Source: Mytilus trossulus (Eukaryota). From it: a stretch of DNA of 64,000 nucleotides. A model generated the notes under the pieces. It was not told the DNA's origin. It saw nothing but the letters and a program-made list of their open reading frames with translations, and searched no databases. The position numbers and the translations under genes are program-made. The stretch lies in assembly GCF_036588685.1 (NCBI RefSeq), contig NC_086373.1:20460001-20524000 (forward strand). Reading direction: 5' to 3'. Of this stretch, positions 7,203 through 58,368 are shown piece by piece; the stretch's first letter is position 1; each line of letters opens with the position of its first letter.

Positions 7203-10200
7203 CTAGTACGGCGGTGCTGATGCCCCGTTTCCTCCGTAAGGAGGAGGAGGCTGTGAGTAACCAGACTGTCCCTGAGGAAGAGGAGGCTGTGTGTATCCAA
7301 ACTGTCCCTGAGGAGGAGTAGGTTGTTGTTTACCAAACTGTCCCTGAAGAGGAGGAGGCTGTGAAAAAACAAATTGTCCCTGGGGAGGTGGGGGCTGTGG
7401 GTATCCAAACTGTCCCTGGGGAGGTGGGTATGCCATATTCTGTCCTGGTGGTGGTGGATAACTCATTCCGGTTGGCTGATTTGGAAATGATGGCACTGGA
7501 GCTGAAATACAAAAAAGTAGGAAATGAAAGACAATAATTCAAAATATTACAAACTGAAAAAAGAAACATACAAAAAGAAAAAGAAAAAAGAAAAAGTATT
7601 TTGACTACAAAAACTGGTTTGTATAATCATAAACATCTTTGTCTCTCAAAACTCTCTGTACTAAAGACCGTTATTCATACAAAAAAATGAAATGGTTAAG
7701 GCTGTTCTTTTACTTATAATTATACATTACTGTATTGTATTGTGACTTAGAAGATTGTATTATTGGCACTCATCCCACATCTTCTTATTTATAAAAATAA
7801 CGAGAATATATATAGTAATATTGGAAAATAAATGCAATAACTGTTTTTGCGTGGAATGTTTCGAAAATATTTGAAGAAACTAATATATCCAACTTCGGGA
7901 TCAACATTCATTAGTCTAGTATACAAAGGATTGAATTAAGTATGCTGCGATCTAGTTACTGTATTACATACGTGAAAGCTGGACAGTAGTAATTCTTGTT
8001 GTCGGTTGTACAACAGTGCCTCTGTTCCCACTGGTCTTTATCTGCTTACATACAACCATAACAACAACAAAAACTATAATTCCAAAGATGATACAACCAA
8101 TCACTATCCCAGGAATAGCACCAGTCGGACTGAAATGTACAAGTGTATGGTTACCAGTCTGATTAGAATTATATTTCTAGTTTCTAATTTGGCTTTTTAA
8201 ATTTACATAACTTGACTACTTTAATCTCCTCAGTTTTGATCATTTAAACAAATCTTTAGTTTGCAAGCTGGCCATTTCAATATGTCAACTAACAGTGTTG
8301 ATGTAAATGGACAGTAGATGGATCTGAACATGTTAGCGCTCTTTTTGATTTTCTTTATTTAGTGCAAAGCGATTTTATTGATAAGAGACAAAATTAGCAT
8401 TTGATCCCTATGTTCAATAATCTATATCCAAAATATTAGTCGGCATGCTTGGTTAACGGGCACATTTTAAAACGCGGTAAAAAGCGATCCCATCAGGACA
8501 TTATACTATCTGAGATGTGGGTCGGGAAACAAGCCAACGTTTAGTTTTTTATGTATTGTTTTTGGGTACTGCTGTTTTTCTTTTCGCTGTTTTTCTATGT
8601 TTTATTAATGACATTACCAGTCTATTTTGATTTATGAGTTTAAATATTCCTTAGGTATATTTTGTCTCTCTTTTAGATGTTGAGCCAAGACGTTCAGTTG
8701 AACGGCAAACGATTTAATGGCTTCTAAGGTCAAGACATTGGTCACGTGATAAAAGGTCAGAGTTTACGATTTTTGGTAAACGTGCACGCCTCGTGGTTTT
8801 TGGACTCGTATTGTCTTATTTGTACTCGTACATTGATAAAAACCAAAGAGTTCAATTCTAGATTGAATAAGCTTCCTTATTTTATATAATTATCATTAAA
8901 AAGCGTTGTAAAAATGTTATAAATTCACGAGTGAAGTGAAACTTTTTTTCTGAAAATTTGCGTAGGTCCACGGAAAATCCTTTATAATTCCTCAAATAGG
9001 TTTGGTAACGTGTTGAGGGGTATAAAATATGAAGTAAAACCATTTTTTGCTTCTTTTAATACTTTATCAGATCACAAAAACCCCGGATACGCAATTGTGT
9101 CAGATTATTCGTTGCGAAGCGGAGATCAAAGGGAGATAACTCGGTACGCGCATCGTAGGATATTGCAAGTTCACAACAGTAAATTCGAGTAAAATTAATG
9201 ATTGCAGATATATTTCGGCAATTTCTTCAGTAAATTTTCAATATTCTATGTTCCTCTACTGTTGTAACATTAAAATAGTCATGGGAAGGTTGAATATGAC
9301 ATTTTTTTTTCAAGTACTTACAGGTTATTGAACACTTCCAAAGAAGAAAATTCTGAACTTGGACTTATTGTATTTTCTCAAACACCCTTTTGGTAGATAG
9401 AAGGATACAAGAGGGGTTTATCAGTTGTCAGTAGAACCTGTGTTACAATAGAATTGAACTTTTCATTGCATGAAAGCAAACTGAATATGGAAACAAAGGA
9501 AATATAGTCTTAAAAATTGTGAACATTTATACTTTTGAATGAAAATAATATGAATTTGCAGTGGACAGAAGTACATGTACAATGCTTGTTTTATTGTACC
9601 TCTTTTAAGATACAGTGGTGGATCCCAGGGGTTCTGGTGACCTCCTCTTTTATGGAAGATTAATGCATTTGAAATCAGGGATCATATAGTTAACTCTCCT
9701 TTTTATCCTTGGTTGAGAATACCACCACTTATGTTTAAAATTGTCTGGATTCACCCTGAGATAACCTTTATAAGATGTACAAGTTATGTTGCTTGCCTTA
9801 ATCAAGAGAAAATATCTGAACCCAAAGAACCAGAAAGGGATTTAGAACATAATAATCAACACAAAGATAACTGAGCAAAAGCTGTATTGCAACCTGATAT
9901 CATGCAGTTCTCATCATAATTCCTATTATATGTATTATTTCAAATTTTGCTTTATTTTTCTTCTTCTTATATTTGAATTCAATAGTCCTGCAACCAACTG
10001 TTGAGTGCATTCAATTAAATTATTGATTGAATAATAAGCTATAAAGCTGACCAGTAAATAAAGTTTGGAAATGCTTTGTTAAAATACAATAGTGGTATTA
10101 TATCATAAAATATACTGAATCAACTTCAAATTTAATCCAAATTCATACTTACCTGCTCTAAAATGCATAATCAATTGAAAAACAAAAACCTGAGAACACT

Positions 10201-13200
10201 ACAATGTATAACATAGAGATTGCACGGCCACTTCCCATGTTATAGTAGTCATAGACAAAAATAAAACTGACTTAAATTAAGTATGTTAATGTTTTTTTGT
10301 AAAAAGGACAACAATAAGATATTTATTATTCTGATATCAGAAATAATCTCATAGTATCAAATAAGAATGTCAGTTCTTTTAATTGAGATAATCAATTTAA
10401 TCACATTATTTACTTTTATAAAAAAAACTCATGATATTATCTGTATTTACAATCATGGACTATATAAAAGCTTGTCAACATCTCACTTACTTCAAATGCT
10501 TTTAAAATTAACCTGTTAGTACTAAAATAAAAGAGATGTGGTATAAGATAAGATATTTTATTCCAATTAAAAAAGGCCATGAAGAGCAAAGTAATGTGCT
10601 ACAATGATTTATATAATTGACACAATAATGTTGATATAAATCAGATAAACATGAATATAACCAACTCCATTCTTAGATTTTAAACCACAGCCAGACCAGG
10701 GCCACACATATATTAGAAAAAAAGGGTATAACAATTATATCTTCTATTATCATGATTATTAAACAGGCAAATATTCTCAAAGTCTTAATTAAAACAATAT
10801 CTGTACTGTATTTATAGTTTTCTGAGTGCAAAACATTTATTTTAAATTGCAACATTTTTCAATATCTCTAGATTTTCTTGAATATGCCAATTAAATTTTG
10901 CACTTGTGCTAAACATTTCAAATTTTTTACAACTTATTATACTGTCATTTAATTCTTTTCTTTAAAAGTTATAAAGGGGAAACTGACATTTAAATATGGT
11001 ATAATTGCCAATAAGATAACAGTCTAGAAACTTATCACCAGAGTCCAAGTACCTGTTAGCAGTGACAGTTAAATTACAAGTCACTTTACATACATCAACA
11101 ATGAATACATTCCATTGTTTTCAGGCAAATGAGGAAAATAAGAGTACCAATAGCTTTTGTCTTACTATATGTACAAGAGAATAATAGAAATGATAATATA
11201 AATAAGGAATAATCAGAGACAAAAAAGACAGGACTTATGCCATTGGACTATATGTAAAGTATTCCCTTACTAATCCTTGGAGGAGCTGCTGTATACTTTA
11301 TAGAAAAAAATATGTTGAGGATTTGGCCCCATCAATCAGGATTTTAGACATTTAATACATAATAATGCCAATTGCAATCTGCTCTATTTGTTCCAATGTA
11401 TAATGAGTATAAAATTTTATACCTAGGGTGGGAATTAAATGTCTTAAATCCATGCATGTTTATTTACTCTATTGTTCTTGGTGTACATAAAATGTACATG
11501 TATATGAAATATATCAAATGCAAAAAAAAATGCTGTAATGTAAATATGGTAATTTGTAAACATCACATTACACCCTCACTATTTAAAGACCTAGTAAAGG
11601 AAGTCCCTGCACCTCGCTTGACCAGTTTCTTAGACAAGATGTTTTATATAACTCTTGAAAGTATAACACGATAAAGGTTATATTGCTAAGTATATATGTA
11701 ACATCGACGTGCAATTAAGGTAAAGCAAACTGTCAAACATAAACAATCTACCACGTGTTTGTCGGCTGTACTTGAATTCAAAACGACCCATCAGGCCTTA
11801 TTTACACGAATTTTTGCTAAAGCAGACAGCTAAATATGTCTGTTTACCTTATGAGGTCTGTAAAGAATGGATTTGGTGGTATGACTTGTGTATGCATGGA
11901 AATATAATGAAGAAAACATTGATTTTTACCGTAACTTTTGAATACACAACATTCCCAAGGTATCCCCACAAAACACATGGCTACTTTGTAACGATGGCTG
12001 GTAACGTATAGCCACTTTCTAACGGCAAATCTAATTGGATGATCTCCAAAGATCAATAATAAAATTGCTAATAAATGATTGGATATGAAATTGTGTCAGA
12101 TTATAAATAGAGGAAAAAATGTAAACATTGAAATCCGCCATTTTGACGTAGGAAACAAACTAATTTCCAATCTTCGATTAAAGGACATTGCGCACATTGC
12201 CAGCGTATCATGCATAACCAGTCATCTGCAAATATATCTTTCAATATGTTTTTTACACTTACTTTTATATGTTTTAGTTAATTTAATGTTTTAATTTACT
12301 ACAGAACGGGACATCGTTCTCAAAGATGCCGTAGACAAAATTATAGGTGGCGCTGTTTGTGGGCGTAAACCTTTTACATACGGGTCCATTTTTGTCGACA
12401 AATTGACCTTTATCTGTCAGATTCAAGCGTTTGCCTTCCAACTGGTTTTACATTTTTCGTTATAAAAAAATCATTTTGTCATTAAAAATGTTCTTCGTCA
12501 CCAAAAGTCCTCAAGTTTCGAACCCCATGTAATTGTACAATAATTATTCGGAAAAAGGGAATACTTTTATATCTAAAATGATATACTCACAATACATATC
12601 CGCAAGATCTATAGGAGTAGTAGTAGCTGTAAGAACAGTAACTGGCTGTGACTGGTATAACTAAATACGAATATAAAACATAATTATAGTAATGATAAAG
12701 TAGTCGGCTGTGACTAGTATACATGTAACTGTTAACGAATGAAGCGTATTCAAAATCGTGATAAAGTAACCGGCTGTGACCGGTGTAACTATAAGCGAAT
12801 ATAAAACAGACCCATACGCATGACAAAGGAGCCAGATATATACGAAAATAAAATATAATCATAATGTTATTGCTTGCTATATACGAATATGAAACACAAT
12901 AATAATCTTGACAAAGTAGCTAACTATATACGAGTATAAAACATAATGATAATCATGATAAATTAGCTGGCTATATACGAATATAACACAGAATCAAAAG
13001 CATGATAAAAACAGGTGGCTGTTACATGTAACTATGAACGAATAAAACATAATCATGATAAAGTAGTCGTATGTAACTGGTATAACTATAAAATACATGC
13101 ATATAAAACATAATCGTAATCATGATAAAGAAGCCGACTATGACTGGAATAACTATAAACGAACAAAACTTAATCATAATCATAATCAGGATAAAGGAGC

Positions 13201-15101
13201 CGGCTGTGGCTGGTTAACTATAAACGAATATTGAACAGAATCATGGAAAAAATTTGGTTGATTATATAGAGAATCACTGAAAAATGACTGGAGTCTCTCC
13301 CCCCCCCCCCCCCCCCCCCCCCCAACTCCTTTAGGTCAGTCAGCGGGCCCCCCTTATAAAAAGTTCTAGATCCGCCACTGCAGTATAAAGCAAATATTGA
13401 ATTTAGTTCCACATATATACCACTGAACGTAATAAGCATTACTACCTCGTCTAAGATATTTACGTCAGAGTTTGAACAGAATTATTATTTTTATATACAT
13501 GTACATATCACTGGGGTTATAAAAACTTAAACCGAAGAAAAAGAAATATTAACTAGATTTGCGATTGCAAGCAATAGCGGATGGCACCCTTCCCCTATTG
13601 CCAGGTGAGCGGTAGCCATGGTAACAGCGGCCATTTTGGAAATTCCAAACTCAAAAGTCAAGTCTACATTAGCTGAGCAACATTTGTTATAAGTTTCAAT
13701 AAATTTGAAGCATTTTGAAGTTTTTTGTATTTTTGCTGTTTCCATGGTAACGGCGGCCATTTTGAATATTCCAAAGTCAAACCCCCGCTGCAACTTTTTC
13801 CCTCCACAATCATATACCATTTAATGGTTCTAGAATAAATTAAACATTGATGTTCTAGAATGTTCTGTGAAAATTCAAAGTTTTGACCTTTTTGCATTGT
13901 TTCCATGGTAACAAGAGCGATTTTGGAAATTCCAACGCCAAATTCCACATCTTCCAATGTTGCTCATCGTTACTGTGAAGTTTCATTAAGTTTGGAACAT
14001 TTTGAGATTTTTGAATTTTTTGGAGTAGTTTCCATGGCAACATAGTAGTTCCAATGAGTGCCAAAATCATCCAACACCTGTATATAGTGGGCACCTACAT
14101 TGTATTAAAATATAATGATTCTGAGTTAAATAGTATCCAAATAGTTCACAAAAACAAAAAACTGGATTTTTTTCACATTTGTTTCGTTTCCATGGTTTCG
14201 GCAGCCATCTTGACGGTGCCATACCCCACTGCACTATAGAATGTTCTTGTCTACATTATGGTATAGTTCCATCAATATTGTTCAAGCCTACTCCGAGAAA
14301 TAGCATGGACAAAAAAGTGTGGAAGAATAAAAATAATAAGAAAAAAAGAAACGAACAATAACAATATGTCACCCCAACTCCGTTGAGGGTGCCATAAAAA
14401 CACACACGTTGTCTCCCTTATACCTGTTTTGATATTGACTTAACATTATAAAGAAGCCATTTGACGATTCAGTCCTTATTTCGCTGACAAGATAATGTTT
14501 TGTGACAGAGAATGTCAGTTCTTGTTTTATAGTAATATAATATTTTTATTAATTGAACATGAAAATAAAACAAGACAGACAAGACAACAAAACACTACCG
14601 ACGGCGAATTCATGTACTCCGGAAGTTTAAAGAAGTTTCTCCTCTGCTGGTTACACCCGTAATGTTAAGAATGGCAGGTAAACATGGATGATACATTGGA
14701 TTCGGTGGTGTCTCAATTAAGATAACGATGAATGGTTTGGGGTATGTTAGTTGGAACAAATCCGTGGTCTCTCTAACCCGCAATAATCTAAAGCAGTCAA
14801 CCAACCGTGTTTCCAATATGAGAACATTTTTTTTTCATAAGAATAAGTTAAGTCTAGTCTTTCAAATAAATTTCAGATAGTGTGAAAACTTAACCACTAT
14901 TTATGAAAACCTCATAGATTAATACTCGAACAGTAACATATATTGTCATAGTGGTAATGAAGGGAAAATAGCATCACTGTGGTTGTATGTGTCAAACAAA
15001 AATTAGATAAGAAAATTATTTGGAAATAAATTTGTATGAAACTATTTACCTTCATTTAGTATACAGAGTGCTAAAATATGTATCCATATAAAATCAGCCA
15101 T
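7203..15101 (-). CDS. Paralog A: CYYR1/Shisa-like single-pass membrane protein, 4 exons, ~192 aa
   Basis: Exons 15101-15050 (MADFIWIHILALCILNE), 12660-12591 (VIPVTASYCSYSYYYSYRSCGYV), 8129-7972 (PTGAIPGIVIGCIIFGIIVFVVVMVVCKQIK...) and 7501-7203 (Pro/Gln/Gly tail ending PPPYGGNGASAPPY*). All introns are GT-AG, phases 1-2-1, and the 579 nt join in frame. Confidence 0.82.
12661..13245. repeat. Degenerate ~60-70 bp tandem repeat (~10 units) whose terminal unit supplies the exon-2 splice acceptor of paralog A
   Basis: Recurring GATAAAGTAGTCGGCTGTGACTGGTATAACTATAAACGAATATAAAACATAATC-like units that match the exon-2 start at 12641-12680. Confidence 0.7.
13551..14400 (+). mobile_element. Non-autonomous element with internal core repeats, an A-rich microsatellite and a 3' hairpin (DINE-1/HINE/pearl-like)
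   Basis: Repeated (GTTT)CCATGGTAAC..GCCATTTTG cores, AAGAATAAAAATAATAAG microsatellite at ~14323-14350, and stem-loop CACCCCAACTCCGTTGAGGGTG followed by an A run at ~14371-14400. Confidence 0.6.
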
Positions 15102-16909: not shown

Positions 16910-19900
16910 TTACACAGATGGTGGTTGTTCAGTTGTTTGTTGGGTATTCCTGTTGTCTGTACGTCTGGTATACCGCGGTGGTTGACCTGTAATAGACGAA
17001 TGCATTCTTTTATTTTTAAATCTTTAATTTGTTTTTACTCTGTGGAGAAGACTGTTGACCAAGTGTTGGCTAGCAAGAACACAGCATTAGAGAAATATAA
17101 ATAATAATATATATAATTGAAGGTCATTAGTTCAACAATGTTATTGGAAAACATTTGTTAAATGTTATTGGAAAACATTTGTTATATGTTATTGGGAAAC
17201 ATTTTTTCTATGTCATTGGGAAACATTTGTTCTATGTCATTGGGGAAACATTTGTTCTTTGTCATTGGGAAACATTTGTTCGATGTCATTGGGAAACATT
17301 TGTTCAAAGTCATTGGGAAACATTTGTTCAATGTCATTGGGAAAAGTTTAATTTCATTGGGAAACATTTTTTAAACGTCATTCATAAAGCATACACAGAT
17401 ATATTCTATTGAAAGGCATTTGTTCATTATCCTCAAATCACCGGGCTGCACAGGATTTTTATTGATCAAAGAGGAATGGTATTTAATGGACATTTATTAT
17501 AATCGAAGTGGAAATATAAAAAAAAAGGGAAATGTGGAAAATTTCCACTTTTGTGAAAATGTCTTCACAATCCCGTAATGGAAGCTACAACAAATAAATA
17601 TTTGGGTGGGAATTTCAAAAGACCTGGGTAACTTGAAAACAAAATTCGAAACCACCTTTTGGAGAAAATAGTTGGTATGTATTATATAGGTTTCAAATGA
17701 CACGAAATTAACTATGTAGGTTTGAAGAATCTCGATAATTTTTAGATCCAGATTAGTTATCTTCAAAAATTTAATTATATTTTTTTTAGATTCCTTTACC
17801 CTTTCGGCCAAAAAAATGGATGAAATTGGATATAATTTTGATTGCCCTGAATTAGATTCAAATGGTCAACCTATTTTGGAATAATATGAAATTTGTCGTC
17901 ACCTGATCGTCCTAATGGATTAGTTGATACTGCTGTATCATGAATCAAATAGTCATCATTATCCAGCATCCGTATATGTGAAACAGCAAGGAGGATAACA
18001 ATAGTGATCAAAATAATGGCCACTATTCCACCAATTACCATGCCAACAATGGTCCCGGCATCGCTAAAATGAGAAAAAAAATCAAATATAAAAATAACAG
18101 GTGATAGCTCTGTAAAAAGGTATAGAGTGCTTCGCAGTATACTAATAAATTATTTCTCCATGAAGCAAAATTATTGGTCGGGCCTTAAATACCCATACTT
18201 TGATTGTCTTCTGTATTTGATATATTTCCCTGTCTAGGACATATTCACAATTGTATATCACATTAAAGTCAATTGAGGACCTTATCCACGTCAAAAGGTG
18301 TAGCGCCATTTATTTGAACTTGTCAGAAAAAAACATACTTGTAACTACATATTTGAAATAAAATAGTTCCTATGCCTGCGTGGAACTTCAAAAACATGCA
18401 AAATATTTTCGAAATTTTGGTATCAAATGAAAATTGACTGACTGGTGATAAATAAGAACACTTTTTGACTATAATTTTTATCAATGACAAAAAAGCATGA
18501 AATTTAAATAGGAGGCTATAATTTGCCTGTTTGTTAGATCTGATGTACCTGTCTTGGTACATCAATGTACCTTGAACATGTTCCGTCTTGGCTTTGCAAT
18601 TAAAGGTTTGTTGATTTTTTTCAGTATGAGATACCATAAGTTATTGCTTTGACATGCAATGCATGATTGTCACTTAATTTGACTTCACACAAAACAGCTG
18701 AGCCTACTTGAATTAACGAATTTAACATTGAAAGCAATGACAGAATGCATCAGTGTTGTACTTCCATAACTAAGGCATCCAATAAGAACCGATTTTATTT
18801 TAATTAATATTTTCAAGATGACATGAAAACTGATTGAAACTACTTTTTTCGCATCGTAATTATGCCCAGCAAAACTGGAGTCAAGAAGAGAACTTATCCT
18901 CAAAAAACAAATAGGATCGCAATCTTTTTGTGGGTAGTTGTCTCATTGGCAATCATACCACATCTTCTTTTTTATATTACTTACATGAGTGTGTGATGAT
19001 GTGAGCGATATATTAGCTAATATGTTAAATAGATAGGATACTACAATGATTCTTAGCTCTCGCAAAACTTTCAGCGGTTAGGGAAATTCTTTAAGTTTTG
19101 TAGCAAATTCTTCCCGCGCTTCATACACAATGTGCTGTTACGTCCTCACTTAAATTGCAAATAGAAACATTGAGGTCGTTTTATTGCTCAGGTCTTGCAT
19201 CATATCAAGCTTACCGTATGTATTGTTGTATGATTGATATAATTTTATTAAAACTCGATGGTTCATTAGATAATGGTGTTATTAATGCTTGGCCATATTG
19301 TTTTCACTTACGGATTGCAAAAGTTCAATTCTTCTGTAGAATTGCTGCATAGTCCAGCTACACTTTTCACTAGAAAGATATAAAGATATATATTCATAAA
19401 TATTATCAATTATAATCATCTTATTTTGTAAATGCTTTCTTGATGGACTGCTTCAAAATCATTTGAAAATTTTGATTTCCCTTTTTCATAGCTGCATAAT
19501 TGTGCTTTGAGGCATTTCGGAGCGATTTTAGGCACTGATTATGTTAAATCGTTAAAAAAAATCCATTTATAATTGTACCATAGACCTTTCGATTTGCAAT
19601 TTCCAACAAGTTTCTTCAGTGAACGAACAGAATAGCAAAGAAAATGACGATACCTCAAATAGTAGCTTCCACTTGGAAAGGAAACAATAATCACACGTGT
19701 TTAGAATACCCTTTTGCGTGATTTTTGTAAATTGTCTTTAATATTTTATCTTTTTTTTTAATTTAATCTCGTATCTTTATTATCTTATAATAAGAGTGGA
19801 TAATTCGTAATGCTCTATATTCTTTGTGTAAATCTAACCGAGAGAATAGTGACGTTAGGAACGTTTACAATAATATTTTTTTCAAAACGTGCTTAACATG

Positions 19901-21520
19901 AACTAATGAGTGTCATTTTAAAGTGCAGCCTTGTTGTATCATAGAACCTTAGTGTTTTACACATATCAAAGTTGTAACTTTGGAACAAAGATCACTGACA
20001 ATACTAATACAACATAACTATTTTAGTTATTTTATCATTTCACGCACTAGGCTATAAGTATGTGAATTTTCACGTGTAAACTTTCATATACATCGATTAT
20101 GAGTGGTACATGAAACAAAGGTTCAAGATGGACTCGTCACTTGTATTGGGGTCTTTTTCCATTGTGAGAAGCAAAGTAACGACAGGTATACTACATGTCA
20201 GAAATATGCATATGGTTGGTCAAAACCTGTTTACAAGGTACAAGTCCAGTCACAATGACTGATAATCTGATATTGGTTCAAATTCTTGATATTTTCGATA
20301 TCCTTTCAGTGTATTGTAAACCTTGTATGTATCATAAACGGGGAAAATGATCATTATTGTCACCCTCTCCCTCTCCTACAACCACACACACTACTTGAAT
20401 ACAAATCGATTTCAATAATTTACAATTCCATTCGATGGCAGTTAAAAGTGGGAAAGATAATACATGTATTTTACACTCAACTACAAAAGAAGCAATTATC
20501 GCTATTTTACTAAGTTTAGCCGGAGGACAATAATCCGATTATTATTGCATAATATTGGACAATAAAAGATATATTTTATCAGGACCTTGTGTAACGTTTT
20601 TAGATCATTATCTTTAAATGAATGTATGAATGTATTGTAAACTATTGCTTTGGCGGTCTTCCCCTCGCTTATAACATGTACACTAGTTATATATTTGTAT
20701 AAATTTGTATACGGTGTTGCGTTTAAAGCAGCCACAGTGCCAATTACAGACCAAAATTTAATAGACCAACAAATAATAGACCAAAATACTTAAATGTAAT
20801 CCGTCGGAATTAACCTCGTTTAGCGGAACAAGTTAAATATGGGGAAATAAGTTGCTAAATTTTAGAAAATTATTGTTGTGGTTCAATTTTCAGTTTTCGA
20901 TGGCAACTATTGCACGTTTGACTTTATCAGTAAAACATATAAACGAGTCAACCGATTGTTTGACAAAATTTCGATATATTTCGATTTTAATAAGATGCAC
21001 TTTAATTCTGGATGGAATCGATATATTATTAAATTTTGTAAGACTGCCTTAGCTAGCACTTAGGATTAATTCGTATAGTTACTTACTACACAAATCATTG
21101 TAAGCACCAAGCCGCAGATATTACCATTGAAAGAACGTTGTGTTGCATATGTATGATAAATGTTAAAAAGAAAAAAAGCAATACAATGAAAATCATAATG
21201 CTTGTCGTCCCTCACCATTATTACAATATTTGATATTAGACAAACTCACCGAGTTGCTTAAAAAGACATTTGGAAATGCATTAGTATGGGTTCTATGCTG
21301 TTCTCCAAACAAAATAAATATATACCGATGTATGAACCATCGAAAGTTCTTTTTTTCACTATAGTAATTTTTCAATCAAATTCTTCTTTTGAATTATCTT
21401 GGTAAATTTGATATGTTTAATATAATTATTCTTAAATTAAGAAAACATAGACCATACAGAATAGAGTGTCTTACCGTTTGTCAGAATAACACTTGAGCAC
21501 ACATACACAATAAGTATCAT
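16910..21520 (-). CDS. Paralog B: CYYR1/Shisa-like single-pass membrane protein (exon 2 unresolved)
   Basis: Signal exon 21520-21475 (MILIVYVCSSVILTN, phase 1). TM exon 18063-17903 (DAGTIVGMVIGGIVAIILITIVILLAVSHIR..., phase 2 in, 1 out). Tail exon 16986-16910 (GQPPRYTRRTDNRNTQQTTEQPPSV*). A candidate 7-nt exon 2 lies at 21256-21250. Confidence 0.68.
17139..17425. repeat. 24-bp minisatellite (~11 copies) in the last intron of paralog B
   Basis: Unit TGTCATTGGGAAACATTTGTTCAA is repeated with substitutions; it explains the periodic ORFs at 17155, 17162 and 17182. Confidence 0.9.
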
Positions 21521-34357: not shown

Positions 34358-37300
34358 TTATCTATTATAGTTTCCAAAGTTTGTTGTTGTCAGGAAAGGA
34401 TTGGCTGATTCTGAGTTGTGTCTGTCAGGCATTGGAGCAGATGGTGTCTGGAAAACGTTTGTTCCCATTGGAAGTGTTTGATTCTGACTTTCGTAGTATG
34501 CTGGTGGTGGAGGAAATTGGTTTGCTGGTACATAAAATTGATGGTTCATTGGCTGCATTTCTAAAAATAAAAATAATGGTGAAATTTTATAGATATTGGT
34601 ATTGTTGAATTCTTATGTTGATCTTAAATAGAGGTGTTTTTTTTTGTGGTGTTTGGTATATAATTCTGTTACTATTTCATTTCAATACTTAGTATACTCA
34701 ACATCTTTTTTAATTCATATATATTCTTAGGCAACTTGAATCATTCTTACTAAAAGGTAATGCACTTTACTTTACATATATTTTATTCTTTTTATTAATT
34801 TTCTTATAATACATTACTGTTAATGTTGTTTGTTTCGTCTATGGATGATGATTCTAATATGACTTGCTTCTTTTGCTTTATGAACAATCACATGCTCTAA
34901 ATCCATTAAAGTTTGTTTCAGTGCATGCGTATATTGACTTCTACGAGAATAATGAATTTTTTTTCAAATTGGTATGCATTTAATATCTCCAATCACTTAA
35001 ACACTTCTAAACTCTAATATAATGCACAGGTTGTTACTAATTCATTTATCATGACTGTCATGTTGCAATTCGAAATTGACATATTTCACCTAGATACGAC
35101 AACCGTGCATGCCGGCTGTTCAAAACTCCTTCCTCTGAAAAATCACATTGCCAGTCGTTTGCTTGTTTGCAAACAAAAAGGGAAGGTTCATGGAAGAGTC
35201 TTCACAAACGCACTACACTTAATATGCACATCGGACATAGAAATAACCTTAATTTTCCTAATCAAAATCGAAATAGTTGATGCAAGCTATACTTTATTGT
35301 AGTTTTAACATGGGTAAGCATTACATTCGCATTATATGCGTGATTATTTTAGCCCTCACTATAGCTCGGGCAAAAATAATCACGCATATAATGCCTACCC
35401 ATGTTACAACTACAATAAAGTATTACAGCTTGCATTAAATATTTGTTAATTTGGACATTTGGTTATTATTATTTTTTCAGAGTGCACACTTAAAGATCAA
35501 AGAACTTAATTAGAACTATTTTCAAGATAAAAACTTTTGATAGCTTTTTTCGGAAGCTTTTCCCTGTATTTCTAGATGGGCTAGCACTTTTGTCTTCTCG
35601 AAATATATATTCGAAAATTCTGTAACCGATTAGTAATCACATGAAAATACAAACTCTAATGCGGGGTTCACACATTGCCGATTATTGCTCCCGTTTGAGG
35701 TCAGACAGCAATACGACACGAAAAGTTAAAAAGTCGGATTAGTATCCTTAATTATCTGGAATGTCCTATCTTTGTCTGAACACAGTCGTTTTAGTTCGTA
35801 ACAGATTCTTACGGGTCGGGAAGGGTCCGAATAGTTCGGCAAAGCACCCCGACAGTTAGGTGCGTCCCGTAACATTCGGGACAGCTCAGACGATTTTGTC
35901 TAGTCGGATTACAATCGTGGCTATGTCGTGACAGATTCTGCTGTATCGGATCGAATTCCGAACAATGTCTTGTGTATTCTGGACGGTGTCTTGTGGAACG
36001 GGAATGATCTTGAGTAATTTTTCATAGTTGTTTTTATGACGATTGAGTCCAGATTGCATCCAAATCTTGTCGATTGCGAACCGTTTTTTGCCGAAACCGT
36101 TCCGAAACAGTCCCGTTATTAATACGAAATTAATCAATGATACCCACGTCAGAGTCCCGACAATTACAGAATACAATACGACTGAGACCAGACAAAGCCG
36201 TTTGCAATGCGATAGAGCGGACCGTGATAGGATTACGTTCCGACAGTACCTGATCATCCCGAATATGCCGACAGTTTTCTAACGGATATCTTCCGTCAGC
36301 GTCGGTTCACTGTCTGGTCACTGTCTGATCTTTGTCGGATTACGTTCGGTAGAGTCGGGACGAAGTCGTGACATAATCGGTCGAATTTTACCTGGCGAAA
36401 AATACAAATTGGGTTAGAAGCGGATTCAGAACGGGATTATCGGGACTTATTCGCTTAGAAACGGTTGAATATCGTCGCTTCCTGAACACTATCTGATTGT
36501 TGTCGTGATCAAATTATTTTCTTTTACAAATTTTGATTTTAGTTTTAATTTCCTTCCACGATTCACAGGATCTTGATCAGACTTTTGATAAATTTTAATC
36601 GGGAATGGTCCTGTCGAGGACGGTAGTAAAAATCGTGAATGTGTGACCCCAGCTTAAGTGGAAATACTTTACCTATCTACTTAGTATCATAACGTAAAGA
36701 TTTTGGGGTTTACAGTTGTTTTTCTTGTGAGCTTGTAAGTTGTAACAAACGACCAAACTAACCCCACCGCGACGTTTACAATTGGCAACTGATAGTAGTA
36801 ATTTTGTTAATCATTCGTACATGTATACATTTTAAAAGTGTTTATCTTTTTTCCACAACGGTTGATTTGTTTATATGGATTTGATCTATTTTTTTTGGTA
36901 AGGATTGACCTTTAGTTTTGATGTTGGCTTTTATATCAGGTGTATTGAAGAGACAATGTTACAAAATCTAAATCATCTAATACAATAGTGGGTAGTTATA
37001 CTAGTATATTAGAAAGATTCATAAATTTTATATACAAAAAAAAAAAAAATCACACAAATACTGAACTCGGAGGAGAATCCAATCGGAAAGTCCATAATCA
37101 TATGGCAAAATCAAATGACGAAACACATCAAAAACGAATGGACAAGAACTGTCATATCCTTGACTTAGTACAGGCATTTTCAAATATACAAAGTTCACAA
37201 AAATAGGAGTTGTTACCTATACAAAAGTCAAAGTGTCGTCACTTCTGGCAATGTTGTTCTAAAATGTCCACATAATATAATCACATTCGTTTATCAATAT

Positions 37301-40300
37301 AATTTGAATTTTTGTTGAGATTCAGTAATCTCATTCTTAATGTTGTAGGCAGCATTGCATTGCTCTTAGTATTCATATTCCTTAAACTTACGAGGATATC
37401 CCGGATGTGCTGCTACCACTGCGATATTATTGCTTGGGACACTGGTTACAGATCGGTGTGATCGTTTGCTGAAACAAAAAGCACCACACATGGCGACTAT
37501 GAAAGTAATCGTTATTCCTATGACAAATAGACCACCAATCACAATACCAACAATCGCACCAATTGATCTGAAAAAAAATTGTTAAATCATTATCTTGTTG
37601 GCATTTGTAATTATTCCGATACCATATTGGATATTTTTAACTTCCGGGTAACTAACCAAAAACCGAGAAAGCACATCAACTACAAGAGGAAAACAAAGGA
37701 ACAACAGGAACACTGAAGTACAACAAAAACAAACGCCAACTTACATAGAAACGAACTATTTTGTGATTTTACTTTTTGATAACAGCTGCCATATTCCTGA
37801 CGTGATACAAAATGGTTAACTTGAACTTGATTTTATGCTAGCCAAACCTCCCGCATATATGGCAATGTTAAAAATATCACTTAACTGACAACGCTACATG
37901 ACAGAAATACTGCGCAAACACATGCAAGAACAGAGAAACATTTTGTCATCGTATATGACATTTAGTTGCTATCATAAGTGGGTCTTGAAACAACAATGTT
38001 TTCTTGACAAAGTAAATACTACAAGATTAAAAAGTCTAGTTACTGGATGGAAAGTCTTGACAAAGTAAATACTACAAGATTAAAGTCTAGTTACTGGATG
38101 GAAAGTCTTGACAAAGTAAATACTACAAGATTAAAGTCTAGTTACTGGATGGAAAGTCTTGACAAAGTAAATACTACAAGATTAAAGTCCAGTTACTGGA
38201 TGGAAAGTCTTGACAAAGTAAATACTACAAGATTAAAGTCTAGTTACTGGATGGAAAGTCTTGACAAAGTAAATACTACAAGATTAAAGTCTAGTTACTG
38301 GATGGAAAGTCTTGACAAAGTAAAAACTACAAGATTAAAGTCTAGTTACTGGATGGAAAGTCTTGCCAAAGTAAATACTACAAGATTAAAGTCTAGTTAC
38401 TGGATGGAAAGTCTTGACAAAGAAAATACTACAAGATTAAAGTATAGTTACTGGATGGAAAGTGCGTGACAAAGTAAATACTACAAGATTAAAGTCTAGT
38501 TACTGGATGGAAAGTGCGTGACAAAGTAAATACTACAAGATTAAAGTCTAGTTACTGGATGGAAAGTCTTGACAAAGTAAATACTACAAGATTAAAGTCT
38601 AGTTACTGGATGGAAAGTCTTGACAAAGTAAATACTACAAGATTAAAGTCTAGTTACTGGATGGAAAGTGCGTGACAAAGTAAATACTACAAGATTAAAG
38701 TCTAGTTACTGGATGGAAAGTGCGTGACAAAGTAAATACTACAAGATTAAAGTCTAGTTACTGGATGGAAAGTCTTGACAAAGTAAATACTACAAGATTA
38801 AAGTCTAGTTACTGGATGGAAAGTGCGTGACAAAGTAAATACTACAAGATTAAAGTCTAGTTACTGGATGGAAAGTCTTGACAAAGTAAATACTACAAGA
38901 TTAAAGTCTAGTTACTGGATGGAAAGTCTTGACAAAGTAAATACTACGAGATTAAAGTATAGTTACTGGATGGAAAGTCTTGACAAAGTAAATACTACAA
39001 GATTAAAGTCTAGTTACTGGATGGAAAGTCTTGACAAAGTAAATACTACAAGATTAAAGTCTAGTTACTGGATGGAAAGTGCGTGACAAAGTAAATACTA
39101 CAAGATTAAAGTCTAGTTACTGGATGTAAAGTGCGTGACAAAGTAAATACTACAAGATTAAAGTCTAGTTACTGGATGGAAAGTCTTGACAAAGTAAATA
39201 CTACAAGATTAAAATCTAGTTACTGGATGGAAAGTGCGTGACAAAGTAAATACTACAAGATTAAAGTCTAGTTACTGGATGTAAAGTGCGTGACAAAGTA
39301 AATACTACAAGATTAAAGTCTAGTTACTGGATGGAAAGTGCGTGACAAAGTAAATACTACAAGATTAAAGTCTAGTTACTGGATGGAAAGTCTTGACAAA
39401 GTAAATACTACAAGATTAAAGTCTAGTTACTGGATGGAAAGTGCGTGACAAAGTAAATACTACAAGATTAAAGTCTAGTTACTGGATGGAAAATGCGTGA
39501 CAAAGTAAATACTACAAGATTAAAGTCTAGTTACTGGATGGAAAGTGCGTGACAAAGTAAATACTACAAGATTTAAGTCTAGTTACTGGATGGAAAGTGC
39601 GTGACAAAGTAAATACTACAAGATTAAAGTCTAGTTACTGGATGGAAAGTCTTGACAAAGTAAATACTACAAGATTAAAGTCTAGTTACTGGATGGAAAG
39701 TCTTGACAAAGTAAATACTACAAGATTAAAGTCTAGTTACTGGATGGAAAGTCTTGACAAAGTAAATACTACAAGATTAAAGTCTAGTTACTGGATGGAA
39801 AGTCTTGACAAAGTAAATACTACAAGATTAAAGTCTAGTTACTGGATGGAAAGTCTTGACAAAGTAAATACTACAAGATTAAAGTCTAGTTACTGGATGG
39901 AAAGTCTTGACAAAGTAAATACTACAAGATTAAAGTCTAGTTACTGGATGGAAAGTCTTGACAAAGTAAATACTATAAGATTAAAGTCTAGTTACTGGAT
40001 GGAAAGTCTTGACAAAGTAAATACTACAAGATTAAAGTCTAGTTACTGGATGGAAAGTGTGTTGATGTAATATCAAATATTATACAATTGACGGCTAACA
40101 CTTCTTCTATACGGTGGCAGAATGAGGCCATGCAAGAAATAGTTTTTAACTTGTTCCCACAACATAATATTTTGTACCCACAAGATAATATATTGTGCCC
40201 ACAAAAAAGTGTTCTTGTTCCCACGAGATAAAATATTGTGAGTACAAGATATTATCTTATGAGAACAATATACTATCTTGTTGGAACAAAATATTATGTT

Positions 40301-41925
40301 ATGGGAACAAGTTAAAAAATATTTCTTGCATGGCCTCCGAACATCAATTTGTATCAAAAGAGAATGTGTGTCATTGTTTATGACATATGTAGGTTATAAT
40401 AAGTAAGTTTTAAATAAGTTTAAATTTCAAGTCAAAAGCTTTATTATTTTTATATATTCTATGGAATACCGGTACTTATATTTCTTCTGAACATTCATAT
40501 TGTATGCTTGTTGTTTCATTATTATTTCCTACCGATAATCTGTCTGGGAGCAGGATGGAAAGTACATTATCATTTTATCAAATATTTTCCGATTGATTGA
40601 TACCAATTCTTCTATCATCAGTCTTTGGTGATATCTTTTTGATTTGTTTTTGTCTCATCTTTTTCTTTCTTTTTTGTTTAGACTGGGAGCAATTTGGCGC
40701 TTGACATACAGTCATACACCTGTGTATGCCTGTTATTGCATTCTTTAATTTGTATAAAGCAATTTTCGTCCATAACAAGACCATAAATATACATTCAACT
40801 TACAAGCCATCGTTGGAATAATAATAGTAGCTACGGTAGTAACGACGATAATATCCTTCAACGTGAGAAACTGAAAATTGATAAAGATTACATTTTCATA
40901 AACGCAAGCAAATCAATTTTATGACAATTGAAACACGGTTTTGGTCAGTCTAGAATTCTACACAGAAACGAATTTTATCGCTATTTTGTGCATTTTTCCT
41001 TTGATCTTTTTTTGTGATAATTTTCATATCATGCTTCTCGCTTGATATGAAAAAAATATTGCTAGAAACTAAGGAGCCACGTGCGTTGCTAACGAAATTG
41101 ACATTGAAATTGACAACGTCGTCACAGGTAAAATAGCGATAAACAGATTATCATTGGTCATCTCAACTCGATTGCTTTTCTCACTTTCGCTGTACCAGCT
41201 CAAGCGAGAAAATCCATCTCGTTGAGATAATCAACGATAATCTATAAATATCGTAATAAAATTAACGGTACCAATTTTCTTGCACCAGATGCGCATTTCG
41301 ACAATACATGTCTCTTCAGTGATGCTCGTGGCCAATATATTTGAAATCCAAAGCTTATATAAAAAATATGTGCGAAAGAACACAATGTTGCATCCCTGTC
41401 TTAAATCAACACACCAGCCGAATAGCAATCATTTAGCTTTTCCCTTGCTTGGATAAACTTTTCTAATACATATATAATCATTGTAGTTAAGATGGGTGAA
41501 CGATTATTTTTTTATATACAGAATTTATTAGTTCGAATAGCACGCTTGGTATTCTTGCTATCAAAAACACAACTGTTGTTTTTCCATTTATCAGGTTAAA
41601 TTCAGGTATTTGATAAAAAAAAATGTTATTAAAAAGATATTAACAATTGTCTATTTTTCACGTATTTATTTGTTTTTCTGGTTATCCATTACTATGTCAC
41701 GGTACGTTGTTACAAAATATCAGTAATTTACTATTATAAAATTGATAGTATAAATAAAAGTAAACAAAATGTTGCCATTTATCGGTTAATTACAGAATTT
41801 TCGAGTTTTGAAAGCACTATGTTTACCAATTATTTCTAATGATGTACAGGTGTACATTAACTTTACTGACCTGAGTTTAAGATAAAGAGAATGACCATGA
41901 AACAAAGTTTTTCTTTAGTTTCCAT
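34358..41925 (-). CDS. Paralog E: CYYR1/Shisa-like single-pass membrane protein, 4 exons, ~166 aa
   Basis: Exons 41925-41871 (METKEKLCFMVILFILNS), 40870-40804 (VSHVEGYYRRYYRSYYYYSNDG), 37567-37392 (SIGAIVGIVIGGLFVIGITITFIVAMCGAFCFSKR...) and 34560-34358 (..FPPPPAYYES..TPSAP..NPF..*). GT-AG introns, phases 1-2-1, 501 nt in frame. Confidence 0.86.
35660..36654. mobile_element. Non-autonomous PIF/Harbinger-like DNA transposon (~1 kb)
   Basis: TIRs TGCGGGGTTCACACATT / AATGTGTGACCCCAGCT with TAA on both flanks (35657-35659 and 36655-36657). The interior is CpG-rich, unlike the flanks. Confidence 0.75.
38003..40059. repeat. Homogeneous 51/52-bp tandem satellite (~40 copies) in intron 2 of paralog E
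   Basis: Unit CTTGACAAAGTAAATACTACAAGATTAAAGTCTAGTTACTGGATGGAAAGT, with a 52-bp variant carrying GCGTGAC. No unique spacers. Confidence 0.97.
40121..40339. mobile_element. Palindromic MITE-like element with ~21-bp internal repeats
   Basis: GAGGCCATGCAAGAAATAGTTTTTAACTTGTTCCCA ... TGGGAACAAGTTAAAAAATATTTCTTGCATGGCCTC. Confidence 0.75.
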
Positions 41926-53044: not shown

Positions 53045-56000
53045 TCATGACCTCATTTCACTGTATGGCGGACATGGTGATGCTGGTGACGATATTCCTT
53101 GAAATGTTGTATTTGATGGCGGCGATGATACACTAATATCTTCATACGCTGGTGGAGGATTTACATCACTACTTGTATACTGTGGTGGCTTTGTTACTAA
53201 TGGTTGATACGGAGGTGCTGTCGGTGGTATATATGACCAGTTATTGTGAAGAGGTGCTAAAAACAAAAAAACATCACATTTATACTGGCATGCTTGAATT
53301 GGAGATCCGAAATATACAAAGGAAACATTTACTAAACATTATATTAACAAGGTATCTGTTATAGGAACTTCTATTTCACTTTTCGAATACAAATGAGACA
53401 AATGTTTGTATTTCGCTCTTTTGAGATTATTTTGAATCTGCACAACATTAATTATTATATAGAATTCTTAAAAAATACAGTCACAATAAAACATGTCGTA
53501 GGCATGAAAGACTTTTGATAAGTTTGTTAACTTCTTCATTCACATCGCTTAGAAAAAAAAACTGGCTCCAATTCGCAATAACTCGCTGAATAACATACAG
53601 TCTCTGTCTTACCATTATCGTTCTTATGTAGTTCTAGAACACCTATTCAGATATATATTTGGAGATAGGCAAACATGAAAGATTGCATCATTATTTAAAT
53701 TAGAATTAAATACCATGTATTGGTATGAAAAGGTATCTATTTGATTCCGTTTGTTTGAAGATTAAAACGTAGAATCAATCATAATAATATTACCGTTGTA
53801 TAAGATTTTTCATTTTCATTTTGAGCATTCCCTTGGCTTCAACTAGTATCTAAATTTCAAAACGACAGAATGTTTCCAGTTTATTTATTTGCACTCGAGT
53901 TAAACATAAAACAAACTTACTGCTGTAAGGGGCCCTTGAAGTAACTGTGGCTATTGGTGTTTGACGTATCGTGTGGCCACGTATACCGTGTGTTTTACAA
54001 CAATTACAAGCGTGTACAACCACAATGACAATAGCTATGACGATACACAGAGCAATCAATCCACCTATAATACTACCAGCTACCATACTGGCAGACCTGA
54101 AATAAAGACAAATACAAATCTGAGTTATATTGTACACGGCTAAAGCCAATTACTACTGACTGAGCTGAAATAAAGACAAATACAAGTCTGAGTTATATCG
54201 GATATGGTTGATGCCAATGAGACACTGAAACAAACGAGCATATAAAAAGAAGAAATTCGAAAAATGACTTGACTTTTCTGAATTCTTTTTTGCCATGACT
54301 GTGATAATTACAAAAAACACATAATTAAAAAATTGCCTGCATCTATTCTTTCCAAAATTGGCTAATTTCCCTGGTAAGTGTAATTGTAGAACGTGTACAA
54401 GAAAATATAGCAAAGTCATATTCAAATTTAGAATCTTTATCTCTGTTAGAATAAGTTTTATCAAACGAAATTGGAGCAATTTATGATATTATTCCCTGTT
54501 TACTCTAAATACATAACTAGCGAATTTGTTTATTGCATACAATCATCAACGTTAGTTCAAACGGTTTTCACAAAATTTATAGAACATAAGCAGGATTTAT
54601 ACTTTCCCAATTGCATAAATACAGTGGATTATATTTTGCACAAAAGTTGTCTACACATCATGTTATTATATGTTATTCTATTTTATTCCAAGATGTTTGA
54701 TTTCTAGCAATAAGAAGCTTTGTCGGGTAAAGAAGATCAAAATGTTAAAGAACTCGTGAATTGAATTCGTTTGGTACGATTCAAGAAGTAAACGGGAGAA
54801 CACGTCGAAAGCGACCCAAATGGTTGATTGCTTTTTTGTGACCTTCAGAATGAAACGTTTGTATACATGAATGCTCAGAAAAGCCACCTGCATGAACAAA
54901 ATTGAAGAAAAGGGGAAGGGAAGTTCCTTAAAATCATCATTTACTTATTATGTCATTCTGGGACATTCTTTAATTTGCACATGTTGAAATAAGAAGTAAT
55001 TTGAAACGCGCTTTATGAAATTTCTGCTGAATATTTTTTAATGCAAATTTACACTTAATTATATGTCCCAAACAGCAAGTAAATGAATTCGATTCCTATT
55101 TTAAAATATTCCTGCACAAATAATGAAATAATTAAGGGTATGCAGTATTTATATATTCTTTTTTTAAACATTTTAAATGTGACGTTATGCTTCGGACACA
55201 TTACTAAGTCTTGACATTGTTTTTTTATTTATACAAAATCTAAGTTTAAAATTAAAAATCTGTGTACATTATATTTATACACATAAATTTTGATATAAAA
55301 AAAACTTGTGTGCGATGGTTGAAAATCTGCCAGCAGATTCGGAGTTATTTTTACATTTTCTGGCATAAATATTTTCCATCGACAAAAACAAATTTTAATT
55401 ATTTCTTTCTGTCAATAATACGCTTAAAATTTATTTTATATTGACAGCCTTATTAACCACATAATACGTTTCTTCCAAGCGTATATATAATCTTCTGAAA
55501 ATGAAGTGGTTGTCTGCCAACACATTTGGATGACAACTGGAAGTTCAGTATCTAGTTACATGTCAGAACTATGCATGTTATGTAATAACTATTTTAAATC
55601 AAATTTTATAATAACAAAGTTATGTGCCAAAGTAATTACAATTTAATGAATTGCATAACTTTATAATTTTATAATACAACAATGTATATTCACTTTAAAT
55701 GGTTATGTAATTTTATTATGTAGAAAAATTATGTGGGGCACCATCCATGACACAAAATCAGCACATGCACAGCAAAGGCACACACACAAATAAACAAAAG
55801 GAACAGGCGCCTTCGATGTATTCATTCTTCAGAATAGATTAAGAGCACGCGAAAGCCGGACTTTTCTATAACAGTTCTGATTTGGACAATACATTAAGTA
55901 TCGGGGGAAATATCTTCAACCGAGTATAATTTTAACTGTTATATTAAACGGTTTTAATCCTGACTTAATTCAGAAGACTTAAACGTAATTGGGAAGTTTT

Positions 56001-58368
56001 TTTAATTTTTATTATTTTTATGATTTAATAAAAAAATACTTAAATCCAACCTACACCTTTAATGCATAAATTTCACAAACACATATATACGCTACACATA
56101 TATTTTTTTTCAATGTTCATGCAGATGCAGTTCAGTTCATATAAAATTTCATCAAGATTATAAATATTGCTAAATAGCAGAGGCTAAGAGTATACTTTGC
56201 CTTTAACGTCACTTAAGAATAACAAAACAAAAGGTTGAGAGCACTATAGGTAACCTAAAGATACATCTAAACTCAACTTTAAAAAAACTATTTGTATGTG
56301 TTCTCGGGGAACATGATACCCTCTAGATCACTCCGTATATATGCTACTCTAATATATTCTAAAAGTTATAAACATTGGCTTTCATAAAAAAAAATCGTGC
56401 ACCACATTATAGACGATGTTTGAGAATTCTAGTATTTTTGGAGGTGTAAAAAGTAAAATCACAAAAATACTGACCTCAGAAGGAAAACAAATCGGAAAGT
56501 CCCTTATCACATGGCAAAATCAAATGACAAAACACATCAAACCCGAATGAACAAGAACTGTCATATTCCTGACTTGGTGCAGGCATTTTTAAAGGCAGAA
56601 AATGGTGGATCAACTCTGGTTTTATAGCGCTAAACCTCGCTCTCTGTTGACTGTCTCATCAAATTCTGTTATATGTAATTTATATTCTATGAGGCCAACA
56701 TACAGAGGGAAATGCGATTTAAGCAAGAACCACTGAGGTACCTCTTCAGGGGTTAGAAAAAACCCATACTTGATATTAAATATCTTACCCGTCATATCCC
56801 TCATAATAATAGTAGTAGTAAGAAGAATAGTGGTTATATCTTCTACTATGGCTGGAACTGACAGGACATACTGAAATAGAGAGAACAGTCTGTATAATTG
56901 ACCATAATATGTTTAAAATAACAAATGTTCATTTTGCCTCCATTTTTTTTCATGCAGGTGGACACCGTTATAAGGAAAAGCCTTTGGGAGCAATTCGTCA
57001 CGTACAAACTTTCTATTTATAAGTGTATTGGATAACCATTAAACAGTTGTTCTGAAATTAAAACCATGGTAAAATGATTGTTTGTGGTCCGATTTATTTT
57101 ACATTGACTTTAACAAATATAAAACTTGGAATCAGAGATTATATAAATGACATAAGAACTTCTGATATTCTGAATATGATGTAGCTGTATGGAATTGCGT
57201 ATTTATTATTCCTTATATATACCAAGGAGCTTTGAAATATCAAAGGACGTCCCACATTTTGACTTTGGACAATGTATGCAAGGGGTCATCAACTAGCAGT
57301 GCACATTACTGTCTGCCAAATATTGGACATACAAAGAAAAATCACCCAATATTTGATATTTAAATAGAACGATGAGTTTATATTAATGTCGAAATATTTC
57401 TTTTATTTACTTGTAAAAAATCAATGGAAATTTTAAAAAAAATCGAAAATTGAATCTTGTTATCTTTAATTTGATATCAGTAAATGTCTACGCCACGAAT
57501 CTCTAAAGTGTCTCTGATTTATACCTTATTTAATAGTTGGTTAATTAAGAGATATAACAATTTACTTGCTTTAACACTTCTTTTCTTTATATCCCAAATA
57601 GGGGTAAACTCATGAAGTAATCAAGCCATATGATCCCATGAATATGACTAGACATATATTGATTATATACAGAAATAGATATCCAATACTAGTAATAGAT
57701 ATCCATATAAAGTACATTAAAAAACATAAAGACACAAGCCAAAAAAATCAACATAAGAATGGAGATATGGTGGAACATAAACAAACTTAATCTTTGTCAG
57801 GGATGAGATAGAATACCATTCAAAAATGTATTTCAAACAATTTGACGGTATAGATCAGTAAATGAACGAACAGTCAAGAAATCAAATAAAAAAATCAACA
57901 GAGAACACTTGAAAGGTTATAAAGTTTCACTAGAGGCCCTTCATCTTTCCGGCTTCCATCCAAAAGAAATGATTGTATTTATATTTTGTTAAATTTCACT
58001 GATGGCGATGCGCTGTAAGAAACAAACTCAAGACAAGAAGTTAGTTGGTTTTTTTTTTTTGCGGGGGGGGGGGGGGGGGGGGGGGGTGCTTTCTCATGGA
58101 AATACTAAATAAACATGGTGAATAGCAAAGTTAATATGTTGTATCAATAAAATACAATTGTTTAATATGTAGAAATAACAATAATATATAAATATATATT
58201 TCATTTCAAAACATCAAGATATTGTCTGTCACTTCCCTTCTCGTATAACCTAATATTTAAGGTCTTATAGGTTTCTAAAACAATTTATATTCAAATTTAA
58301 TGATTACCTGAAAGGAGAAATCCAAAGAAATAAAAGCAAAAATATCCAAAAAAATCATATACATCCAT
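53045..58368 (-). CDS. Paralog F: CYYR1/Shisa-like single-pass membrane protein, 4 exons, ~176 aa
   Basis: Exons 58368-58308 (MDVYDFFGYFCFYFFGFLLS), 56870-56789 (VCPVSSSHSRRYNHYSSYYYYYYEGYDG), 54096-53921 (SASMVAGSIIGGLIALCIVIAIVIVVVHACNCCK...) and 53256-53045 (..PPTAPPY..PPQY..PPAYEDI..CPPYSEMRS*). GT-AG introns, phases 1-2-1, 531 nt in frame. Confidence 0.87.

Follow-up and report, generated by a model that had tools for sequence, protein, structure and literature searches.

The window analysed here, a 64,000-nucleotide stretch of Mytilus trossulus DNA (contig NC_086373.1, positions 20,460,001 to 20,524,000), carries five complete minus-strand genes which are probably reduced, single-pass relatives of the Shisa-like/CYYR1 proteins, their ectodomain likely having shrunk by internal deletion and the proteins likely serving as adaptors whose PPxY motifs bring in NEDD4-family ubiquitin ligases. 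The layout comprises four exons encoding the signal peptide, the ectodomain, a transmembrane (TM) helix and a Pro-rich PPxY tail, with exon 2 also encoding the end of the signal peptide. A keyword literature search returned no description of the reduced bivalve forms, which the family survey of Pei and Grishin 2012 may list.

Anatomy of the window genes

An earlier note on this DNA had described Tyr/Ser/Arg micro-ectodomains in genes E, F and A. The peptides are indeed encoded on the minus strand at the exon 2 positions given below and, as also proposed there, each lies in its own phase 1-2 exon, the exons of E, F, A and C being AG/GT-bounded and of this phase. The exons of genes E and F are as follows.

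41871..41925, minus strand: gene E exon 1, signal peptide
40804..40870, minus strand: gene E exon 2 (phase 1-2), Cys-free ectodomain YYRRYYRSYYYYSNDG following the end of the signal peptide; model as P0003
37392..37567, minus strand: gene E exon 3, TM helix with GxxxGxxxG and a juxtamembrane Cys
34358..34560, minus strand: gene E exon 4, Pro-rich tail with PPAY
58308..58368, minus strand: gene F exon 1, signal peptide; read-contig joint 56870-58308
56789..56870, minus strand: gene F exon 2 (phase 1-2), Tyr stalk without Cys, its end reading YYYYYYEGYDG
53921..54096, minus strand: gene F exon 3, TM
53045..53256, minus strand: gene F exon 4, tail with PPQY and PPAY

Translation of 40804-40870 in gene E gives SHVEG-YYRRYYRSYYYYSNDG, with 8 Tyr. 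The four-exon gene E model agrees letter-for-letter with P0003 (XP_063422527.1, M. trossulus RefSeq), a match which is not independent as this record probably derives from the same M. trossulus assembly, and no gene E splice junction occurs among the 15 read-contig joints listed of 255. Intron 2 of gene E contains a 51-bp satellite (38002-40058; 40 copies, 97% match).

Exon 2 of gene F (56789-56870) encodes 9 Tyr. F exons 1-2-3-4 are joined in contig 15 (640 nt) of run X18, in which exon 4 occupies letters 30-315 and exon 3 letters 316-489, the exon 2 and exon 1 sides taking 84 and 67 letters, respectively, while run X2 joins exons 2-3-4. Both runs are presumed, as a guess, to be RNA, and their joints skip GT-AG introns. 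Exons 1-4 use up the length of the X18 contig, so that there is no room for an additional exon. The earlier note had held that additional ectodomain exons restoring a Cys-rich domain in transcripts would contradict its reading. For gene F, such a hidden exon is ruled out by the X18 and X2 contigs. For E, A1, B and C the answer comes from annotated models, which contain no extra exon, and from relatives that are whole-ORF proteins on Logan contigs of 0.9-1.5 kb, which have the same short ectodomain and are read as spliced transcripts. A stretch of ∼1 kb upstream of gene F is present twice in tandem (59020-60050 and 60050-61070), and the interval separating genes E and F holds, on the plus strand at 48201-50303, a single-ORF, 700-aa Toll-like receptor (LRR + TIR) of opposite orientation.

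The remaining members of the window are the following.

15050..15101, minus strand: gene A1 exon 1, signal peptide, placed using P0055
12591..12660, minus strand: gene A1 exon 2 (phase 1-2), Tyr/Ser loop of C-x10-C form; P0055
7972..8129, minus strand: gene A1 exon 3, TM
7203..7501, minus strand: gene A1 exon 4, Pro/Gln/Gly repeats and PPPY
12661..13230, minus strand: repeats in A1 intron 1, degenerate 47-66 bp tandem copies of the exon 2 acceptor region
16910..21520, minus strand: gene B, exon 1 21475-21520, exon 2 19312-19369, TM exon 17903-18063, PPRY exon from 16986; P0066
23386..27048, minus strand: gene C, exon 2 26143-26182, TM exon 25230-25381, PPRY + PPQY tail; P0092
29911..30136, minus strand: D, TM exon

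The A1 model matches P0055, and those of B and C match P0066 and P0092, although the database records for A1, B and C probably come from the same assembly and the matches are not independent. No exon 1 or 2 recognisable as belonging to D, such as another copy of the C-like ones, was found within the window, and D is a probable gene fragment. M. galloprovincialis model P0088 has the exons 1-2 that D lacks, possibly a presence/absence difference or a model artefact. A LINE-type reverse-transcriptase ORF, interrupted by a stop near 4225, is present on the minus strand at 3204-5630.

With cleavage sites placed by eye, the ectodomains measure 18 (E), 25 (F), 20 (A), 16 (B) and 10 aa (C). Tyr makes up 35–44% of the A, E and F tips, Arg stands beside Tyr in E, and A1 exon 2 (12591-12660) combines 7 Tyr with the C-x10-C loop. 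Exon 2 of gene B encodes a C-x9-C loop without Tyr, and that of gene C reads EGNDSSS (26143-26182), with an N-D-S sequon, zero Cys and zero Tyr, in agreement with the earlier description of an ectodomain reduced to a short stretch with an N-glycan sequon. Thus, only three of the five complete window genes are Tyr-rich. This concentration of Tyr exceeds the chance level obtained from 30 order-2 simulations, in which segments of 16 stop-free codons with at least 7 Tyr had a mean of 0.17 (maximum 1) and those with at least 8 did not occur, compared with three and two observed, respectively. Lys is absent from all eight two-Cys or Cys-free tips listed. AlphaFold2 modelling of A1 from a 20-row alignment (mean pLDDT 57) predicted helices only at residues 2-18 (signal) and 45-72 (TM), the ectodomain having pLDDT <50 and no secondary structure.

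Kinship with CYYR1 and the cysteine series

Kinship to the Shisa-like/CYYR1 proteins, suggested previously, is supported by the Pfam CYYR1 scores of gene E (34.8 and 35.5 bits versus a cut-off of 31) and by the PPxY tails. Exon 1 encodes a hydrophobic signal peptide in A1, B, C, E and F, a single TM helix follows the ectodomain with a Cys near its C-terminal end in A1, C, E and F and none in B, and PPxY occurs in the Pro-rich, [LP]PxY-type tail of 6/6 proteins checked. Alignment A2 has no invariant columns other than TM glycines G48 and G52, which also account for two of the three in alignment A3. The nearest Atlas clusters of A1 are molluscan CYYR1-like and shisa-5-like (0.91-0.95). The PF10873 gathering score is reached by E and by the two-Cys protein P0057, but not by the four-Cys P0060, by A1, A4, B and C or by the F ortholog; at E 0.05 this profile found no match in A1, B and C or in the F ortholog, and a Pfam family search of the genome returned only 2 weak matches.

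The signal peptide, the short Tyr-rich ectodomain, the single TM helix with a Cys near its end and the Pro-rich PPxY tail are those of CYYR1/Shisa-like proteins (STMC6, PF10873). In contrast, the C*C*CC*CC motif, described as defining Shisa-like proteins, which have roles in trafficking and degradation (PMC5578492), retains two Cys at most in the mussel proteins, the mature part containing 2 Cys in A1 and B and 0 in C, E and F, so that the earlier statement that the multi-Cys domain is largely lost holds. The ectodomain is also shorter, 10-25 aa compared with 35-44 aa in the six-Cys proteins measured. As the six-Cys motif is lacking, the genes are classed not as typical members but as reduced relatives, likely with a mode of action like that of CYYR1.

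Searches of the mussel's own genome matched 32 and 17 exons, spread over several contigs, with family loci on C1, C7 and C9. The 18 further ectodomain exons recovered from 40 stretches around part of these matches fall mostly into the six-Cys class (11), with 4 four-Cys exons, 2 two-Cys exons and a single Cys-free one. All 18 are single phase 1-2 exons. Some entries of the list came from a scan that accepted only phase 1-2; among the matches listed, an all-phase scan gave the same frames. Thus a 6-4-2-0 Cys series exists within one genome with the same exon phases, a natural set of deletions within a single exon with which to probe the role of the Shisa-like ectodomain. In nine of the 11 exons of the six-Cys class, 16-26% of residues are Tyr, which cluster between Cys1 and Cys2 and again in the stalk that follows the last CC. 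The phase 1-2 exon shared with the six-Cys relatives, and their mostly Tyr-rich composition, make both traits look ancestral. Most simply, the micro-ectodomains are internal deletions that kept either the Cys1-Cys2 loop (A, B) or the Tyr stretch only (E, F). Oyster P0020 and other Mytilus loci also have a two-Cys Tyr loop, its C-x10-C form is common to mussel and oyster proteins, and six-Cys forms of oyster and starfish are likewise Tyr-rich.

A tree of 26 TM exons did not settle the deep branches and supports no order or number of Cys losses. Independent origins of the Cys-free forms are not claimed: the tree contains 4 changes, only 1 of which is forced by starred branches, and shuffles gave counts as low in 500/500.

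Two loci outside the window add to the range of exon forms. At L085 (G000:C1:91343997-91344111), another Cys-free Tyr/Ser/Arg ectodomain exon lies upstream of a family TM exon. At L076:4873-7610 (G000:C9:73662873-73665600), the ectodomain exon of a four-Cys member is split into two minisatellites, one of 14 x 94 bp (acceptor plus first-loop half) and one of 20 x 67-76 bp (Tyr stalk half plus donor). Only 5/20 stalk units carry GTGAGT at their end, and the one closest to the intact exon has GTGACT instead. These arrays show how half-exons can arise. At gene A2, as in A1, tandem exon 2 acceptor copies of 62-66 bp (10.2 in A2) lie upstream of exon 2 (G000:C1 about 20453100-20453750), an upstream acceptor copy leading to a stop in the exon 1 frame.

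Divergence of the tips between paralogs and species

The earlier note had attributed the Tyr codons to (TAY)n runs prone to slippage and hence variable in length. Runs of Tyr codons are present but mix TAT and TAC, a pure triplet repeat reaching no more than 3 units in 7/7 Tyr-rich exons examined; TRF detected no array in the Tyr-rich exons. The mixed codons point to selection on the residue. Slippage as a driver of variability is not supported, as loop length (C-x10-C in 5/5 A paralogs) and the F Tyr6 run (Tyr6-EGYDG in 5/5 Mytilus species) are also constant. Slippage does occur in longer pure runs: P0061 and P0096 differ by one Tyr in a longer Tyr run, and the number of Tyr codons varies between 4 and 5 among units of the array at G000:C9:73.66 Mb. 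One-residue indels are found between species in E and F.

Divergence between paralogs was assessed in the A genes, four further intact copies of which lie 0-40 kb left of the window (G000:C1:20420000-20460200) at a spacing of about 8-13 kb, with open exon 4 reading frames in A2-A4. Exon 2 is the most divergent among the copies (identity 72-90%, versus 79-95% for TM exon 3), exon 4 being 91-96% identical among A2-A5, and the Y/S/R pattern of the loop is different in each of the five. In sums over 10 non-independent pairs with small counts, pN/pS between A paralogs was 0.61 in the loop versus 0.36 in the TM exon, values which do not support positive selection on exon 2. Informative sites switch from an A1+A5 to an A2+A5 grouping inside exon 3, not at introns, indicating gene conversion or unequal crossover and not exon swapping; exon-wise shuffling between A paralogs is therefore rejected. 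The proposed interchangeability of ectodomain exons is not supported as a special feature, given this crossover and given that its basis, the phase 1-2 exon, is common to the 11 six-Cys-class and 4 four-Cys-class exons.

Between species, the tips are largely conserved. The F ectodomain is identical at 22-23 of 25 residues in four other Mytilus species; within the edulis group it differs at 2/25 positions, compared with 0/125 in the TM helix and tail, and against M. californianus and M. coruscus identity is 22/25 in the ectodomain and 87-88/100 in the tail. Three M. edulis/galloprovincialis records agree with the E ectodomain at 15-16/18 positions and show one Tyr indel, a level of identity similar to or above that of the E signal peptide (19/24). 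The M. coruscus counterpart of E, which shares a contig with the M. coruscus counterparts of F, C and B-A, is identical at only 8/18 ectodomain positions and its charge is reversed, the C-x9-C being kept in an acidic tip whereas M. trossulus E is Cys-free and basic. In a cluster of oyster relatives, 14 of the 15 sequences listed of 34 members have the same tip between Cys1 and the TM helix, and all 14 variable positions among 13 full-length 169-aa sequences fall outside this part, although clusters cut at 90% identity favour such apparent conservation.

Thus, the variable binding tip put forward earlier has partial support, with exon 2 the most divergent exon among the A paralogs, five different A loops and an E tip that, against M. 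coruscus, has lost two Cys and become basic, whereas hypervariability is weakly supported. Conservation of exon 2, which the earlier note had set against its own proposal, is largely what was found between species. The between-species and paralog comparisons suggest that the tips diverge slowly between paralogs, with no sign of a hypervariable microsatellite.

Probable adaptor function and other readings

At late endosomes, the PPxY motifs of human CYYR1 are described as binding WW domains in WWP1, WWP2 and ITCH and driving lysosomal degradation (PMC11399591). By analogy, the PPxY tail of the mussel proteins would bind WW domains of NEDD4-family ligases, the GxxxG-type TM helix and short aromatic stalk at the outer or lumenal membrane surface may pick a partner membrane protein, and partner or ligase would then be sent to endosomes and lysosomes. 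The ectodomain would have arisen by internal deletion of a six-Cys exon to a two-Cys Tyr loop or a Cys-free Tyr stalk, and paralogs may differ in partner or tissue through slow tip divergence and not repeat slippage. In mouse SHISA-5, partner binding is reported to need the Cys-rich domain (PMC10531659), so that its loss in the mussel forms could change function. Members with almost no ectodomain are intact and conserved between species, which implies that function can be carried by the TM helix and PPxY tail. Commissureless, PRRG4 and yeast Rcr1/Rcr2 have the same short single-pass PY-motif plan, with binding to NEDD4/Rsp5 ligases known for them, and Commissureless is described as having an ectodomain without Cys and similar trafficking work (PMC5578492). 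This likeness is in working principle only, as no sequence relationship was seen and Comm has no signal sequence.

Antibody paratopes are enriched in Tyr/Ser, and the two-Cys Tyr/Ser loop may instead be a true ligand-binding paratope, diversified between paralogs, with the micro-receptors coupling an outside, possibly microbial, ligand to ubiquitin-dependent uptake. The five different loops of the five A paralogs, further variants in other species, the greater divergence of exon 2 and the higher pN/pS of the loop (0.61 versus 0.36) are consistent with this reading, as are the many family loci on contigs C1, C7 and C9, the TLR gene within the cluster and the reported over-representation of Pfam Shisa in the gill of Mytilisepta virgata, an enrichment concerning Pfam-positive members and not necessarily the reduced forms (PMC5549309). 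However, pN/pS is <1, loop length is fixed, the changes are mostly Y/S/R swaps, and the tip lies within about 20 residues of the membrane. With the oyster sequences and the E and F orthologs nearly constant and B and C lacking Tyr, a paratope is doubtful, if conceivable. It is quite unlikely that in bivalves the Shisa-like domain has given rise to minimal receptors whose entire ectodomain, a CDR-like tip without a scaffold, is a Tyr/Ser/Arg loop of ten residues closed by a disulfide, with gene conversion diversifying the loop between tandem paralogs and with direct coupling to NEDD4-type ubiquitination. A role of the ectodomain as a nearly neutral spacer, the TM helix and tail acting alone while a Tyr-rich, low-complexity exon decays and drifts by microhomology deletion and gene conversion, is likewise unlikely. 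The Ser stretch that is all of C, the Tyr-free B, the different tip of M. coruscus E, the exon 2 pieces in tandem arrays at A1, A2 and G000:C9:73.66 Mb and the mosaic exchange among A copies agree with a spacer; the F tip does not, its Tyr6-EGYDG being unchanged in five Mytilus species and its ectodomain as conserved as the tail against M. californianus and M. coruscus (22/25 versus 87-88/100), nor do the mixed TAT/TAC codons, which point to residue-level selection, or the C-x10-C Tyr loop common to mussel and oyster.

That the Tyr tips are substrates for DOPA conversion, in adhesion or cross-linking, or for Tyr sulfation, with the modification as their function, is very improbable. The Tyr content of the A, E and F tips (35-44%) and the Arg beside Tyr in E would fit such a role, and acidic residues, which suit sulfation when beside Tyr, adjoin the Tyr run in F; the E tip, in contrast, is basic and a poor context for sulfation. 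Tyr richness also extends to the six-Cys oyster and starfish forms, and the proteins are membrane-anchored with PPxY tails. The word 'shisa' occurs in one byssus paper, only as part of a place name. A DOPA glue role is unlikely, and the observations lend weak support to both the hypervariable-tip and the glue readings. The mussel foot proteins Mfp-3/5 are secreted and Lys/DOPA-rich, and are not known to have a TM helix or a PPxY tail. The likeness to them drawn in the earlier note extends to high Tyr with Arg and Ser but breaks down beyond composition, since the tips are without Lys, in all eight two-Cys or Cys-free examples listed, and are carried on proteins with a TM helix and a cytoplasmic PPxY tail.
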